The notes beneath the pieces are model-generated. The model saw only the letters and a list, made by a program, of their open reading frames with translations. It was not told the DNA's origin and searched no databases. A DNA stretch of 64,000 bases from NCBI GenBank assembly GCA_902384935.1, contig CABMDO010000013.1, positions 4,370-68,369 on the forward strand, written 5' to 3'. This document shows positions 29,998 through 34,381 of this stretch, piece after piece. How positions within the stretch are numbered: position 1 is the stretch's first letter; each line of letters starts with the position of its first letter. The stretch comes from Candidatus Norongarragalina meridionalis. Lineage in GTDB: Archaea; Micrarchaeota; Micrarchaeia; Norongarragalinales; Norongarragalinaceae. Both the position numbers and the translations under genes were made by a program.

Positions 29998-30084
29998 ACA
30001 AAACCGCGCAAAGAAGAAAAGCGGTGTCGTTAGTCTTCGCGCACCAGGCGCACGAAGCCGTAGTTATTCCGCCTTTCCGCCTTA

Positions 30085-30654
30085 TTAAACGTGACGCTTA
30101 GACGCGGCGGAGAGCACGTCGGACTTCGTGATTATCCCCGCGATTTTCCCGCGTTTCGTGACGAGCACGGCCTTTTCATGCATGAGAAGCGCGACAACTG
30201 CCTGCAGCGGCACCGCCTCGTCCACCTGCGGGAACGGCGGCGCCATTATCGCTGCCACTGTTTCGGAAGAGAGGTCCGCGCCCTTTTCCACCCGCGCAAG
30301 AACGTCCTCCTCGCTCAGGCTTCCTACGGCGCGCTCTCCCTCGAGCACCGGAAGCTGTGAAACGCCCTTTTTTCCCATGAGCGAAACCGCCTTTGATGCC
30401 TTCTCGTGCGGCGCGACGACGCACAGCCGCCTGCTCATCGCGTCCGACGCCTTCAAACCCGTGGCATGCTCCTTCTCGTCGAGCACGTCCAGCAGCCGCT
30501 TCACGCGCGAATACGACGCGTCGCTTGTTCCCGCCTCGAGCTTCGCGACCAGGGACTGACTCACTCCCGCCTCCTTCGCAAGCTCAGACTGCGTCATGCC
30601 CAGCACCGCGCGCCGCCTTCGTATCGCCGCAGTTTCCGCGTCCATATATTCCAA
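30085..30654 (-). CDS. HTH (XRE-type) + CBS-pair transcriptional regulator
   Basis: N-terminal HTH LGMTQSELAKEAGVSQSLVAKLE, followed by two CBS-like segments. Confidence 0.65.
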   Translation of the reverse strand: MEYMDAETAAIRRRRAVLGMTQSELAKEAGVSQSLVAKLEAGTSDASYSRVKRLLDVLDEKEHATGLKASDAMSRRLCVVAPHEKASKAVSLMGKKGVSQLPVLEGERAVGSLSEEDVLARVEKGADLSSETVAAIMAPPFPQVDEAVPLQAVVALLMHEKAVLVTKRGKIAGIITKSDVLSAASKRHV

Positions 30655-31625
30655 TCATAATAATTACGACAGAAAAATATTTATACCTTTGTAACGTGTT
30701 TAATCTATGTTTGCTCCTAATATCGGCAAAGAGTACATCGAGCCTGCTGAGCATAGCGTTTGTAAGAGCGACTGCCAAGATTTCATTCGTGACAAGTTCG
30801 GCTTGATTTCGCAGCGCGAGATGGCGCGCAGGCTAGGACTTGGAAAAACTACGGTAAACCGTTGGGCTGAAGAAATAGGTTGCAAGTTCGTTAAAAACTC
30901 TGTCGACGATGCATTCTTCGATTCCTGGTCGGAAGAATCCGCCTACGTTTTCGGTTTCATTATTTCTGATGGAAATGTTTGTTGGAATCCCCGCAAGTCG
31001 TACTGGACGCTCACGATAACCGCTTCGGAAAAGGATGTTTCCCACCTAGAAAAACTGCGTTCGTTGCTGGACTCCACAAAGCCGCTTCTTTACTCCCTGG
31101 AAACCAAGTCCTATCGTTTGATGGCGACTAACAAACGTCTATGCAAAAAACTTATGCATTTGGGCGTCTTGCCCAGAAAGTCGTTGACGGTAAGATTCCC
31201 GAAAATTCCAAAAGCATTCCTTAAGGATTTTCTGCGGGGCGTGATAGACGGAGACGGGAATGTCCGTTACGTGAAAAGAAAACGGAGCCCTTATTTCGAG
31301 ATAACGATAGCTTCGGGTTCCAAAGAATTCTGCGAGGGACTTATTGCCGCCATAAAAAGAAATTATGGAATACCTGCAAATGTTCGTAGGGCGCACGGAC
31401 ACACCTACGTAGTTCAGTATTGCTGTTCCCGCGGCGAAAAACTTGCGGAAATAATTTATTCTAACGCGACTGTATTTCTCGAAAGAAAGTACGTCGCTTT
31501 TGATGAAGCAAAGAAAAAGAGGTGTAAGCATGGCTGAAAAAAAGTTTTTCACGTCTGAGTCAGTCACCGAAGGTCACCCGGACAAAATTCCCGAATGATT
31601 TATTCGTTCGAGGATGTCTAAAATT
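30655..31625 (+). mobile_element. AT-rich island carrying a free-standing LAGLIDADG homing endonuclease gene and the disrupted 5' end of metK
   Basis: Marked drop in GC relative to the flanks. Contains the HE ORF and a 36-nt insertion in metK flanked by AAAATT direct repeats. Confidence 0.5.
30707..31537 (+). CDS. Double-motif LAGLIDADG homing endonuclease with N-terminal HTH
   Basis: Motif 1 YVFGFIISDGNV, motif 2 FLRGVIDGDGNV. N-terminal HTH (REMARRLGLGKTTVNRWAEE). AT-rich codon usage unlike its neighbours. The stop overlaps the metK ATG. Confidence 0.75.
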   Translation: MFAPNIGKEYIEPAEHSVCKSDCQDFIRDKFGLISQREMARRLGLGKTTVNRWAEEIGCKFVKNSVDDAFFDSWSEESAYVFGFIISDGNVCWNPRKSYWTLTITASEKDVSHLEKLRSLLDSTKPLLYSLETKSYRLMATNKRLCKKLMHLGVLPRKSLTVRFPKIPKAFLKDFLRGVIDGDGNVRYVKRKRSPYFEITIASGSKEFCEGLIAAIKRNYGIPANVRRAHGHTYVVQYCCSRGEKLAEIIYSNATVFLERKYVAFDEAKKKRCKHG

Positions 31626-32723
31626 TGTGACCAGGTGAGCGACGCGATACTTGATGCGATGCTGGCGAAGGACCCTGACGCGCGCGTCGCGGTGGAATGC
31701 ATGACCACCACGGGCTCGCTGATGATGGCGGGCGAAGTCACCACCAACTGTTACGTGGATATCCCGCACATCGCGCGCGAAACCTTGCGCGACATAGGCT
31801 ACACCGATCCGGAGTTCGGGCTCGACTGCAACGACTGCGGCGTCTGGACGAGCATCCACGAGCAGTCCCGCAACATCGCCGTAGGCGTCGACTCTTCGGC
31901 GAAGAAGGAACAGGGTGCGGGGGACCAGGGCATGATGTTCGGGTTCGCGTGCAACGAAACCAAGGAGCTGATGCCGCTTCCCATATCGCTCGCGCACAAG
32001 CTGACGCACCGCCTGGCGGAGGTGCGCAAGAAGAAAATCCTGGATTGGGTGCGGCCCGACGGAAAGTCGCAGGTTACCGTTGAATACGAAAATGGAAAGC
32101 CGACGCGCGTCGACGCGATAGTAATCGCGGTTCATCATAATCCTTCCGTGTCGCGCGAGAAAATAGTCGCCGACGTGATGGAGCACGTCATAAAGCCGGT
32201 TTGCGGCAATCTCGTCGACGGAAACACGAAATACTTCATCAATGCAACCGGGGTATTCGCAGTTGGCGGGCCCGAGGCGGACACGGGAGTGACGGGGCGC
32301 AAGATAATCGTGGATACTTATGGGGGAATGGGCAGGCACGGCGGAGGATGCTTCAGCGGCAAGGATCCGAGCAAAGTCGATCGCTCGGCTGCGTACGCGG
32401 CGCGCTACATCGCGAAGAACATAGTCGCGGCGGGATTGGCTGAAAAGTGCGAGGTGCAGCTTTCGTACAGCATAGGCGTCGCGGAGCCCGTGAGCGTGCG
32501 CGTGGAATGCTTCGGCACCAACAAGGTTTCCGAAGACAAGCTCTCGGAACTCATACGCAGGCACTTCCCGCTCAAGCCGGCGGACATAATCAGCCAACTG
32601 AAGCTCAAGCGGCCGATTTACCGGAAAACCGCGGCGTACGGGCACTTCGGACGCGAGGATCCCGACTTCACGTGGGAGAAAACCGACAAGGCGGAAGCGC
32701 TCAGGAAGGAAGCCGGGGTTTAG
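31530..32723 (+). CDS. metK: S-adenosylmethionine synthetase, bacterial MetK type, interrupted by an in-frame TGA at 31596-31598 (36-nt insertion); the main ORF restarts at 31614
   Basis: N-terminal exon-like piece [20 protein letters not shown] (31530-31589) matches the MetK N-terminus. After the insertion, [13 protein letters not shown]...[12 protein letters not shown]...[34 protein letters not shown] continues in the same frame. Removing 31590-31625 restores a contiguous MetK. Confidence 0.7.
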
Positions 32724-32758
32724 CGATAGTTTTTAAGCAAGCCGCGTTTTTTTTGTTT

Positions 32759-34381
32759 ATGCGGCTTCAGGTTTTTCTAGCGTTCGCACTTCTGGCGCCA
32801 TTACTGTACGGCGCGGATCTCGAGCCGAAGATGACGGGTTCCGCGCATTTCGGCGTCTCGCTTTCCTGGGTCATGCACGCTTCGGAAGGTTTCCGCGGAA
32901 CCGCGCGCTTCTCGACGTTCGCGTTTTCCGAGACGCCCTACCAGAACGCGCAGTTCCGCATCCCGCAGCAATATTCCGAGGAGACCGACTCCTTCGGGAA
33001 CAAGCGCATCGCCTTTTCGTGGAATCCGGAACCCGGCAATCCGCAGAAATTCGAGATGTTCGCGGATGTTTCCGTCGACTATTCGCAGGAACTGGAGCGC
33101 ATCGCGGAGCAGAATCCCGCGTACCTGCAGCAGAGCGAGTTCGTGATTCTGGACGGCGAGGCGGCGTCCCAGGCGCTGGAAATCGTAGGCGACGCGCCGA
33201 CGCGCTTCGAGAAGGCGGTGCGGCTCGCCGACTGGGTTTACAACAACGTCGAGTACGACGTGGCGTACTGGGACCGGCAGGAGAATTCCAGCACGGTGCT
33301 GAAGATACGGCGCGGCGTGTGCGACGAGAAGAGCCACCTGCTCATGGCGTTCCTGCGCAGCGTGGGCATACCCTCGCGCATGGCAGCGGGTTTCGTCTAT
33401 TCCGGCAAGTCGTGGGGTCCGCACGCGTGGGTGGAGGCGGACTTGGGCGACGGATTCTGGACGCCGATAGACGCAACGTTCAACGAGTTCCGCGTCATAG
33501 ACGCAACGCACCTGCGCTTCGCCGTAGGACGCGACCAGGGCGATATAGCGGAGGAGCTTACCGAGGGGCTGCTGCTCCAGAAACCCGCGCCTTCGTTCGA
33601 CGTGGAATCGCAATCCAATTTCAACAGCCTCGCCTATTCGCTGAAGTTCTCGACGGTTCCGAAGCGCGTAGGCCCCGGTTCTTCCGAGAAAGTGGCGGTT
33701 GAAATCCAGAGCACGTCCGCATTCCCGCAGGCGGTGCCCGTTTCGCTGGCGGCGCCGCAATCTCCTGCGGAACTGGCGGTGCGCGTCACCGACGCGGCAT
33801 CCCGGCTCGTATACCTTCCGCCGAACGGCGACGCGAAGGAGGAGTGGAATCTGGTTTTCCCGACCGCGCTGCAGCCCAGTTACGTCTACAATTTCACGCT
33901 CGAGGCGTCAACGATGGGTTCGCGCTTATACGCAGTTGTGGAAGGAAGGCGCGACGCCCCGGTTTCCTACTCGCAGGAGGTTTCCATCGAAAAGCTCGAA
34001 TCCGAACTCAAGGACGGAATGTTCGTGCTCAGCGCGGTGATTCGCAACCGCGGAAACGTGCAGGCGAACCCCAACGTAATATGCGTGCTCGGCGACGTGT
34101 CGCAGAGCAGCGTGGTTCCGCTCACGCCGGGAGAGGAGCGCGCCGTGCAATTCGCATTTCCCGCGCCGAACGCCACCAGCGTTTCGGGCAAGGTTCGGGT
34201 TGTTTCGGGAACGCAGGTGACGGAACAGCCGTTCGTTTCCTCCATCACGCAGGAATCGGTTATCTACGAGCGCCCGACGAACGACGAGCGCCCCGTCGTA
34301 GTCGCGGTGCTCGCCATAATAGTCGTATTGCTCACGCTATTTTTCCTGAAGAAGCTGCGGCTGCCTTATCGGCCTTTATAA
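32759..34381 (+). CDS. Membrane-anchored transglutaminase-like cysteine protease domain protein
   Basis: Signal peptide MRLQVFLAFALLAPLLYGA. Transglutaminase-like core GVCDEKSHLLMAFLRSVGIPSR...HAWVEADL...WTPIDAT (Cys/His/Asp triad). C-terminal TM helix and basic tail. The track extension to 32447 is rejected. Confidence 0.65.
   Translation: MRLQVFLAFALLAPLLYGADLEPKMTGSAHFGVSLSWVMHASEGFRGTARFSTFAFSETPYQNAQFRIPQQYSEETDSFGNKRIAFSWNPEPGNPQKFEMFADVSVDYSQELERIAEQNPAYLQQSEFVILDGEAASQALEIVGDAPTRFEKAVRLADWVYNNVEYDVAYWDRQENSSTVLKIRRGVCDEKSHLLMAFLRSVGIPSRMAAGFVYSGKSWGPHAWVEADLGDGFWTPIDATFNEFRVIDATHLRFAVGRDQGDIAEELTEGLLLQKPAPSFDVESQSNFNSLAYSLKFSTVPKRVGPGSSEKVAVEIQSTSAFPQAVPVSLAAPQSPAELAVRVTDAASRLVYLPPNGDAKEEWNLVFPTALQPSYVYNFTLEASTMGSRLYAVVEGRRDAPVSYSQEVSIEKLESELKDGMFVLSAVIRNRGNVQANPNVICVLGDVSQSSVVPLTPGEERAVQFAFPAPNATSVSGKVRVVSGTQVTEQPFVSSITQESVIYERPTNDERPVVVAVLAIIVVLLTLFFLKKLRLPYRPL

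Follow-up and report, generated by a model that had tools for sequence, protein, structure and literature searches.

How does an archaeon make S-adenosylmethionine synthase (MetK) from a metK gene whose reading frame is broken by a stop codon directly after the catalytic GHPD motif? The question is raised by a stretch of 64,000 nucleotides (nt) from Candidatus Norongarragalina meridionalis (Micrarchaeota, DPANN), hereafter the window, in whose coordinates all positions are given. A preliminary description of this DNA, made from its letters alone, had reported that metK is interrupted after GHPDK by an AT-rich insert carrying an in-frame TGA. The interruption is present as described, and metK is interrupted at the same codon in 19 distinct Micrarchaeota alleles from genomes and metagenomes. 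We conclude that the insert is probably a relaxed bulge-helix-bulge (BHB) mini-intron, which would be removed from the RNA by the tRNA-splicing endonuclease and a ligase. The coding features of the locus, as predicted under this reading, are the following.

31519..31524, plus strand: metK Shine-Dalgarno motif GAGGTG, preceding the exon-1 start ATG at 31530
31530..31585, plus strand: metK exon 1, from the ATG at 31530 to the bases AA of a Lys codon
31586..31621, plus strand: predicted BHB-type mini-intron of 36 nt, AAUUCCCGAAUGAUUUAUUCGUUCGAGGAUGUCUAA, with structure-predicted boundaries and homologous inserts in 19 alleles
31596..31598, plus strand: in-frame stop TGA, close to the apex of the intron hairpin
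31622..32723, plus strand: metK exon 2, opening with the last base of the split Lys codon and running to the stop codon, with three MetK Pfam domains

Read from the ATG at 31530, the exon-1 frame terminates at TGA 31596-31598, after a GHPDK-containing segment that ends in PE. A second ATG at 31614, in frame with the first, starts a 369-aa open reading frame (ORF) that ends at 32723 and is identical to the NCBI entry "S-adenosylmethionine synthase" of Candidatus Norongarragalina meridionalis; comparison of this main ORF with the MetK families recovers the three Pfam domains, the N-terminal one being matched only from profile position 16. Removal of the 36 nt, which have a GC content of 36%, yields a predicted spliced MetK of 385 aa with an intact GHPDKICDQ, collinear throughout with the intron-less relative P0002 at 91% identity. 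The preliminary description had set the insert at 31590-31625, bounded by a 6-bp direct repeat AAAATT. Both copies of the repeat are there (31584-31589 and 31620-31625) and these boundaries give the same product, the repeat making the two placements equivalent, but the structure described below puts the intron at 31586-31621. On that structure the repeat is not a target-site duplication; it consists of the two A-rich bulges together with Lys-Ile codons.

The recurrence of the insert was established in two ways. In a MetK protein comparison, 9 clusters among the best 120 relatives lack the N-terminus, many beginning (M/V/L)SKICDQVSD, with 78-79% identity to the window protein; their contigs carry a short frame ending in GHPDK/N plus 1-4 residues and a stop, then a hairpin, then NUGUCUAAAAUH UGY GAC CAG. 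The DNA pattern of the 3' junction was also scanned against one-genome-per-species representatives, where it occurs in 9 places, 8 of them Micrarchaeota metagenome-assembled genomes, and against Joint Genome Institute metagenomes, where 18 places comprise 12 metK loci and 6 chance matches. The ninth match among the representatives, at locus L015 (loci outside the window are cited by such numbers), has no GHPD upstream and was set aside as chance. The inserts of the 19 alleles measure 33 nt (one allele), 34 (three), 35 (five), 36 (seven), 37 (one) and 38 (two). Most of these lengths are not multiples of three, so in most alleles the upstream fragment and the downstream ORF lie in different frames; the arrangement in one frame noted in the preliminary description thus holds in the window and fails in most relatives, the in-frame TGA of the window is coincidental, and read-through or recoding is impossible as a mechanism. 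The earlier argument that TGA is not recoded is borne out as well, since TGA closes 25 of the 44 long ORFs of the window, more than any other stop codon. A stop in frame inside the intron is found in every allele, against some 46% expected per allele from shuffles, lying 3-6 codons past the Lys/Asn codon and at the same codon position, the fourth, in 14 of the 19. It may act as a safety stop that halts ribosomes on unspliced RNA. Whatever the insert length, removal at AA|N...AA|A restores both GHPDK-ICDQ and the reading frame in all 19 alleles. In a rough neighbor-joining tree of MetK, which included 14 of the intron alleles, these fall in about 10 or more separate places among intron-less ones, a scatter that points to mobility or repeated loss.

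Around the insert, the RNA can be drawn as a BHB motif with the following elements.

31572..31577, plus strand: outer exon-exon helix, 5' strand GGUCAC, pairing with 31627-31632; present in the minimum-energy fold
31580..31583, plus strand: central BHB helix, 5' strand GGAC, pairing with GUCU 31616-31619 over 4 bp
31584..31586, plus strand: 5' bulge A A|A, with the predicted 5' splice site between 31585 and 31586
31587..31615, plus strand: intron hairpin, helix h' (31587-31598 with 31604-31615) and loop 31599-31603
31616..31619, plus strand: central BHB helix, 3' strand GUCU, also found in all alleles recovered by protein similarity alone
31620..31622, plus strand: 3' bulge A A|A, with the predicted 3' splice site between 31621 and 31622
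31627..31632, plus strand: outer exon-exon helix, 3' strand GUGACC, pairing with 31572-31577

The GGAC of the central helix is formed by the last base of the Pro codon and the Asp codon of GHPD. The 3-nt 5' bulge lies between the central helix and h', its third base being A in 13 alleles and U in 6; h' begins straight after this bulge (AA^N), and on the 3' side the bulge AA^A comes after GUCU. An arrangement of two 3-nt bulges, one per strand, around a 4-bp helix can be drawn in 19 of 19 alleles; with each strand read 5' to 3', the helix precedes the bulge, which is the canonical BHB order. An 81-nt stretch of the window folds at -28.3 kcal/mol (z-score -3.9). The hairpin that the preliminary description had proposed to look for by folding 31590-31625 is indeed found there, as the h' hairpin at 31587-31615, with -11.9 kcal/mol and a z-score of -2.7 to -3.2.

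Helix h' was tested by comparison across alleles. In an ungapped alignment of the 19 alleles anchored on both intron ends, in which pairs were counted over all alleles, 7 of the 8 anchored pairs of h' have changed on both sides (43 cells). None of 500 shuffles of this alignment attains the observed paired fraction or the observed covariation score, and sliding the h' partners by 1-3 columns lowers the paired fraction to 28-42%, versus 90% observed. When the full sequences were simply aligned with MAFFT, RNAalifold independently returned the same architecture with 9 compensatory pairs. The compensatory substitutions by which a BHB structure can be recognized are therefore found in h'; the introns of the window and of its close relative L019 are clearly homologous and differ by such changes. 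The outer helix is paired in 93% of cells across the 19 alleles and shows no covariation, because both of its strands are coding. Two broader searches added little: no Rfam family was matched in 30000-33000 at E up to 1, and a search across the window for any BHB motif that interrupts an ORF (4-bp helix plus 4-bp h') produced 302 candidates, the majority at the borders of genes, and was uninformative beyond recovering 31586-31621.

BHB cleavage falls between the second and third residues of each bulge (PMC2738675). Cut in this way, all 19 alleles yield a functional junction, GGACAA|AAUHUGY; in the window, joining 31585 to 31622 gives GAC AAA AUU UGU, which encodes D-K-I-C, and the predicted spliced junction is GGACAA|AAUUUGUG, or in its longer form CCGGACAA|AAUUUGUGACC. 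Selection on the flanking codons is consistent with such a product. Over the last 12 codons of exon 1 in the 19 alleles, the ratio of nonsynonymous to synonymous divergence (pN/pS) is 0.09 with a pS of 0.51, and its median over the whole of metK is 0.24; by these measures both exons are under strong purifying selection. Within this freely varying synonymous background, the two codons that form the central helix, CCG and GAC, are invariant at their synonymous sites in 19 of 19 alleles, whereas neighbouring codons vary freely and intron-less relatives have CCA GAT or CCC GAT.

Taken together, these observations suggest the following course of events. Transcription would start at the metK promoter and pass first through an inserted LAGLIDADG endonuclease gene. 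Around codon 19 the RNA would fold so that GGAC, from the Pro-Asp codons, pairs with the intronic GUCU, leaving two 3-nt bulges and a hairpin on the intron side. EndA would then cut after the second base of each bulge and an RtcB-type ligase would join the exons, EndA and RtcB being the presumed enzymes of the two steps, and the product GGACAA|AAUUUGU would be the mRNA for a normal 385-aa MetK. On unspliced transcripts, translation would end at the in-frame stop in the hairpin. The intron itself may be maintained, or be propagated by co-conversion, whether or not the endonuclease gene accompanies it.

Several points weigh against this account. The motif is not a strict hBHBh': the 3' bulge lies in an internal loop of 7 nt opposite 2 nt, and the outer helix is parted from it by an internal loop with CC opposite AUUU. 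Because the outer helix is thus not stacked on the 3' bulge, the motif is a relaxed HBh'. Motifs of this kind are cut only by EndA enzymes of broad specificity (PMC5829648), so splicing here would need such an enzyme; one EndA type of broad specificity, epsilon-2, was discovered in Micrarchaeota, in Candidatus Micrarchaeum (PMC5829648, PMC12397907). The central helix is invariant in the 19 alleles and hence beyond the reach of covariation, it appears in the single-sequence minimum-energy fold of only 9 of the 19, and its GUCU half formed part of the search pattern, though the alleles discovered by protein similarity carry GUCU too. The intron also lies only about 56 nt into the coding region, where translating ribosomes could disrupt the fold. 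An exact look-up of ten predicted spliced proteins found none of them, which argues neither way.

Two alternatives would leave the insert in the mRNA. One is programmed translational bypass, to which the preliminary description had pointed: the ribosome would take off at Lys/Ile, slide over some 36 nt and land on AAA AUU. The model for this is the bypass element of T4 gene 60, which adjoins the homing endonuclease gene mobA. There are likenesses: both are short, AT-rich hairpin inserts with a stop in an essential gene, both adjoin a free-standing endonuclease gene, and in both the insert plausibly protects the endonuclease target; the window even has matched AAA AUU on both sides, a stable hairpin right after the take-off point and a stop in frame there, kept in all 19 alleles. 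The matched codons, however, fail in 7 of the 19 alleles. In 6 of them AAU (Asn) stands in place of AAA, so that a hop at Ile would give GHPDN-I, and L011 (AAU ACU GCU GAA UGA) has no codon at all that matches the landing site. The stop is usually four codons beyond the Lys/Asn position and not adjacent to the take-off codon as in gene 60, the nascent chain would be only 19-24 residues long, and bypass leaves unexplained the pairing of GUCU with GGAC, the exact 3-4-3 geometry and the frozen synonymous sites of CCG GAC. We therefore hold bypass to be quite improbable; given the BHB fold, removal would most likely be from the RNA and not by the ribosome. The other alternative, likewise raised earlier, is a split gene in which a 22-aa peptide that contains GHPDK and a 369-aa protein beginning MSKICDQ assemble non-covalently. 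Phage genes are indeed known to be divided by homing endonuclease insertions into two functional parts, the 369-aa ORF is the one that gene callers annotate, and in every allele the N-terminal fragment is closed by a stop and a suitably placed NUG is available. Translation signals speak otherwise: a Shine-Dalgarno-like 5-mer precedes the exon-1 start in 19 of 19 alleles, and no Shine-Dalgarno motif precedes the internal start in any of the 19. That internal codon (ATG in 8 alleles, GTG in 8, TTG in 3) is fixed by RNA pairing, its U pairing with the first A of h', its G being part of GUCU and its first base covarying with its partner. The C-terminal tails of the N-terminal peptide are not conserved (PE, VA, F, NIG, TN and others), and a split gene would have no need of a covarying helix or of exact BHB geometry. 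This makes two separately translated parts an unlikely arrangement.

A further alternative, to which we assign a low probability, is that the insert is removed by something other than EndA and RtcB, or is tolerated, and that the BHB-like fold is incidental to a role at the DNA level, for instance that of a hairpin breaking an endonuclease target. In its favour are the non-canonical 3' side of the motif and the position of the insert, within 5 nt of the endonuclease junction described below. The covariation, on the other hand, maintains an RNA or single-strand helix and not a DNA sequence, the bulge positions give exactly the needed junction in all 19 alleles, and no other archaeal mechanism is known for the precise removal of some 35 nt. 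Finally, the gene may be dead or the interruption an artefact (a recent pseudogene, as the preliminary description had allowed, an error of assembly, or a TGA decoded as sense). A stop does break the ORF, and DPANN organisms do lose many genes. Yet the interruption recurs in 19 diverged, independent alleles from different assemblies and sites, both exons show the strong purifying selection noted above, and recoding would not help where most inserts shift the frame and where TGA ends so many of the long ORFs of the window; we regard this explanation as extremely improbable. Splicing of a relaxed BHB mini-intron, a possibility that the preliminary description had not raised and with which every allele agrees, remains the reading that we favour.

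Where might such an intron have come from? The gene directly upstream of metK suggests a candidate.

30676..30686, plus strand: TATA-like box AATATTTATAC, putative metK promoter, the sequence being collinear with L008 and L019 up to the box
30707..31537, plus strand: free-standing LAGLIDADG gene, here named HEG-A (homing endonuclease gene A), 276 aa, Pfam LAGLIDADG_3 (1e-10) and Hom_end

HEG-A encodes an N-terminal helix-turn-helix and two LAGLIDADG-type motifs, YVFGFIISDGNV and FLRGVIDGDGNV (FGFIISDGNV and LRGVIDGDGNV in the ORF), with the acidic residues expected of such enzymes, and its ORF ends 8 nt inside the metK start. Its GC content is 45%, compared with about 60% in the flanks, and its GC at third codon positions 0.50 compared with about 0.75. 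The preliminary description had recommended a search for related genomes without the insert, and these exist: L008 and L009, which carry the closest MetK (91% identity), share the window's gene order S6e, uS2, HTH-CBS (helix-turn-helix and CBS), metK, transglutaminase, with neither the endonuclease gene nor the intron, the metK 5' region of the L008 type reading GGTCACCCGGACAAAATCTGCGACC. In L019 the intron is present and HEG-A is absent. HEG-A thus combines presence and absence at one locus among close relatives with a foreign base composition, as expected of a homing endonuclease gene. In the window the cassette starts right after the TATA-like box, which may function as a promoter and now stands 21 nt before the endonuclease ORF, and it stops just short of the Shine-Dalgarno motif of metK. 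Because it lies between these two signals, HEG-A and metK probably share one transcript.

The association of HEG-A with metK extends beyond the window, in agreement with the earlier proposal that the insert is tied to a homing endonuclease. At E <1e-5, 289 homologues of HEG-A were found, many of them in other DPANN lineages, and the four intact copies that were examined in their loci (the window, L016/L039, L041 and L042) all immediately precede metK; in L011, a 27-aa remnant of the HEG-A C-terminus directly precedes metK exon 1. Among the best 120 of the 289 homologues, 14 called proteins bear a MetK-like N-terminal leader ending in EGHP, and 4 continue without a stop into a new copy of metK exon 1; three of these 4 end in GHPDKT-x-stop and are hence of the intron type. 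In L041, a segment of about 75 nt that contains the Shine-Dalgarno motif, the ATG and the coding sequence as far as GHP stands as a direct repeat on both sides of HEG-A; its boundary falls at GA| of the GHPD Asp codon, 3 nt from the 5' splice position of the mini-intron. The point at which HEG-A invaded metK would therefore coincide with the intron position to within a few bases (3-5 nt), and the HEG-A cleavage site presumably lies near the GHPD Asp codon.

This coincidence supports the view that the insert disrupts the endonuclease target, and most likely the intron would make metK resistant to HEG-A. Protection of the target, which the preliminary description had suggested, remains in our judgement the best evolutionary reading, and an RNA-spliced "immunity insert" that arose or spread by breaking the target of a metK-specific HEG family is a conceivable, if still tentative, description of the metK mini-intron. 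Three considerations count against it. The idea leans on one clean junction, that of L041, together with the protein leaders; L041 and L042 carry HEG-A beside an uninterrupted metK, so that the intron is not required for coexistence; and the leader motif xYLCD could place the true insertion point of HEG-A some codons further downstream. For the window's own HEG-A, an alignment of its N-terminus with a decayed metK 5' end was not significant (score 16), such a leader being clear only in relatives.

Several further observations concern the endonucleases and their presumed target. In L041 (1023-1130), the old metK 5' copy fused to HEG-A has an extra 17-18 nt (EIYQNS) at GHP|DK, followed by IKCEDIS, which is similar to KICDQVS; in other HEG-A leaders xY replaces DK (GHP-LY-LCDE). 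The centre of the presumed HEG-A target is altered in every endonuclease-linked metK copy. With the intron removed, the junction at 31572-31632 reads GGTCAC CCGGACAAAATTT GTGACC, a near-palindrome with 6-bp arms 13 bp apart; symmetry of this kind is typical of LAGLIDADG targets, but the outer RNA helix is built from these bases too. Another family of LAGLIDADG genes, HEG-B, occurs near intron-bearing metK on the opposite strand in L001 (2392-3198, minus strand), L011 (330-1121, minus strand) and L034; its members are 67-71% identical to one another and unrelated to the window endonuclease by BLASTP, and the L011 copy adjoins the 27-aa HEG-A remnant as if displacing or invading HEG-A. Within the HEG-A ORF, 31192-31215 contains AAGATTCCCGAAAATTCCAAAAGC, which resembles the start of the intron region at 31584-31600 (AAAATTCCCGAATGATT) over 12 nt with one mismatch; since the conserved RFPKIPK is encoded there, the likeness may be fortuitous. 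In L014 (metK from ~1380 onward) and L030 (minus strand), metK has, besides the mini-intron, an in-frame insertion of about 404 aa at GAGDQG|C...VHN|SMFGF, with intein-like ends and the LAGLIDADG-type motifs GELIGDG and LRGLFDSDG, so that metK has been invaded there at two different catalytic motifs.

The surroundings of metK are archaeal by Pfam (ribosomal protein S6e and an archaeal-type uS2), and the region of about 30600-31800 is the sole low-GC island in the 64 kb, with a GC content of 0.46-0.49 versus 0.51-0.68 elsewhere. The metK gene at 31530-32723 is itself of bacterial type in an archaeal genome, its product being 72-75% identical to proteins of the candidate phyla radiation (Kerfeldbacteria, "bacterium Unc6"), which suggests an exchange of metK between domains among ultra-small organisms. 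Two other origins were considered and rejected. A repeated element or miniature inverted-repeat transposable element is contradicted by the insert being single-copy in the window (at up to 3 mismatches) and having no terminal inverted repeats, and no blastn match to phage records was obtained that would give the cassette a phage origin.

How does this arrangement compare with known systems? In collaborative homing, a free-standing endonuclease is paired with an intron, as in the cyanophage psbA intron with F-CphI, the introns being self-splicing group I introns of phages. As in metK, the endonuclease gene lies outside the intron, the intron lies at or near the presumed target, where it would confer immunity on the host allele, and the two can spread jointly; metK differs in having an enzyme-dependent BHB mini-intron in a cellular archaeal genome, with the HEG-A cleavage site placed by deduction. 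Archaeal rRNA BHB introns encode LAGLIDADG endonucleases, e.g., I-DmoI (PMC2738675), and so likewise combine a BHB intron with a LAGLIDADG enzyme, ORF-less derivatives being known; their ORF lies inside the intron and their host is an rRNA gene, whereas in metK the ORF is upstream and the intron is too small to encode anything. The closest parallel is the intron of the cbf5 pre-mRNA in Crenarchaeota (Desulfurococcales and Sulfolobales; Watanabe 2002, Yokobori 2009), which measures 16-44 bp, lies in the catalytic Asp codon, has a mostly unconventional BHB, is a substrate of EndA and shows gains and losses among lineages (PMC2738675). The two share a very short intron in coding sequence at a catalytic-motif codon, a BHB that is mostly unconventional or relaxed, exon borders between the second and third bulge residues and a patchy, lineage-specific distribution. 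They are set apart by the gene, by the DPANN Micrarchaeota host, by metK splicing being read here from sequence alone, and by the physical linkage of the metK intron to homing endonuclease genes, no endonuclease link having been found for cbf5 (PMC2738675). In Haloferax volcanii, HVO_1309 has a BHB intron in its 5' untranslated region, verified in vivo and in vitro (PMC7714728). There, as is predicted for metK, the archaeal splicing endonuclease acts on an mRNA and not on a tRNA or rRNA, but the intron lies ahead of the coding sequence, which stays unbroken.

By a 2020 account, cbf5 and the one Haloferax 5' untranslated region were the only cases of BHB introns in mRNA (PMC7714728), and further searches of the literature added no other BHB intron in an archaeal coding sequence. 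Our literature search found no report of an archaeal metK intron, nor any mention of introns or LAGLIDADG genes in the paper describing Norongarragalina. The metK element displays those BHB features that can be judged from sequence, except for the strict 3' flank; what appears to be new is the setting of this relaxed BHB mini-intron, namely the gene, the superphylum and the link to a free-standing homing endonuclease. With an RNA of about 80 nt, a single enzyme and 19 natural variants, the system is small enough to be tested easily in vitro. It also bears on annotation: gene callers truncate MetK, the 369-aa NCBI entry lacking the catalytic GHPD, and metabolic reconstructions could misjudge the gene.

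If the splicing reading is true, the metK mini-intron would be the second archaeal coding-sequence intron of the BHB kind to be known and the first outside Crenarchaeota. Its occurrence in an unrelated essential gene of a distant DPANN lineage would mean that Crenarchaeota are no isolated case in having mRNA spliced by the tRNA-splicing endonuclease. If the immunity reading holds as well, it would be the first archaeal mRNA intron whose gain can be tied to a conflict with a homing endonuclease, and the link to a metK-targeting HEG family offers a concrete, testable route for the origin and spread of the intron. As the cbf5 intron also lies at a catalytic Asp codon, the same route may represent a general origin for such introns at catalytic-site codons.

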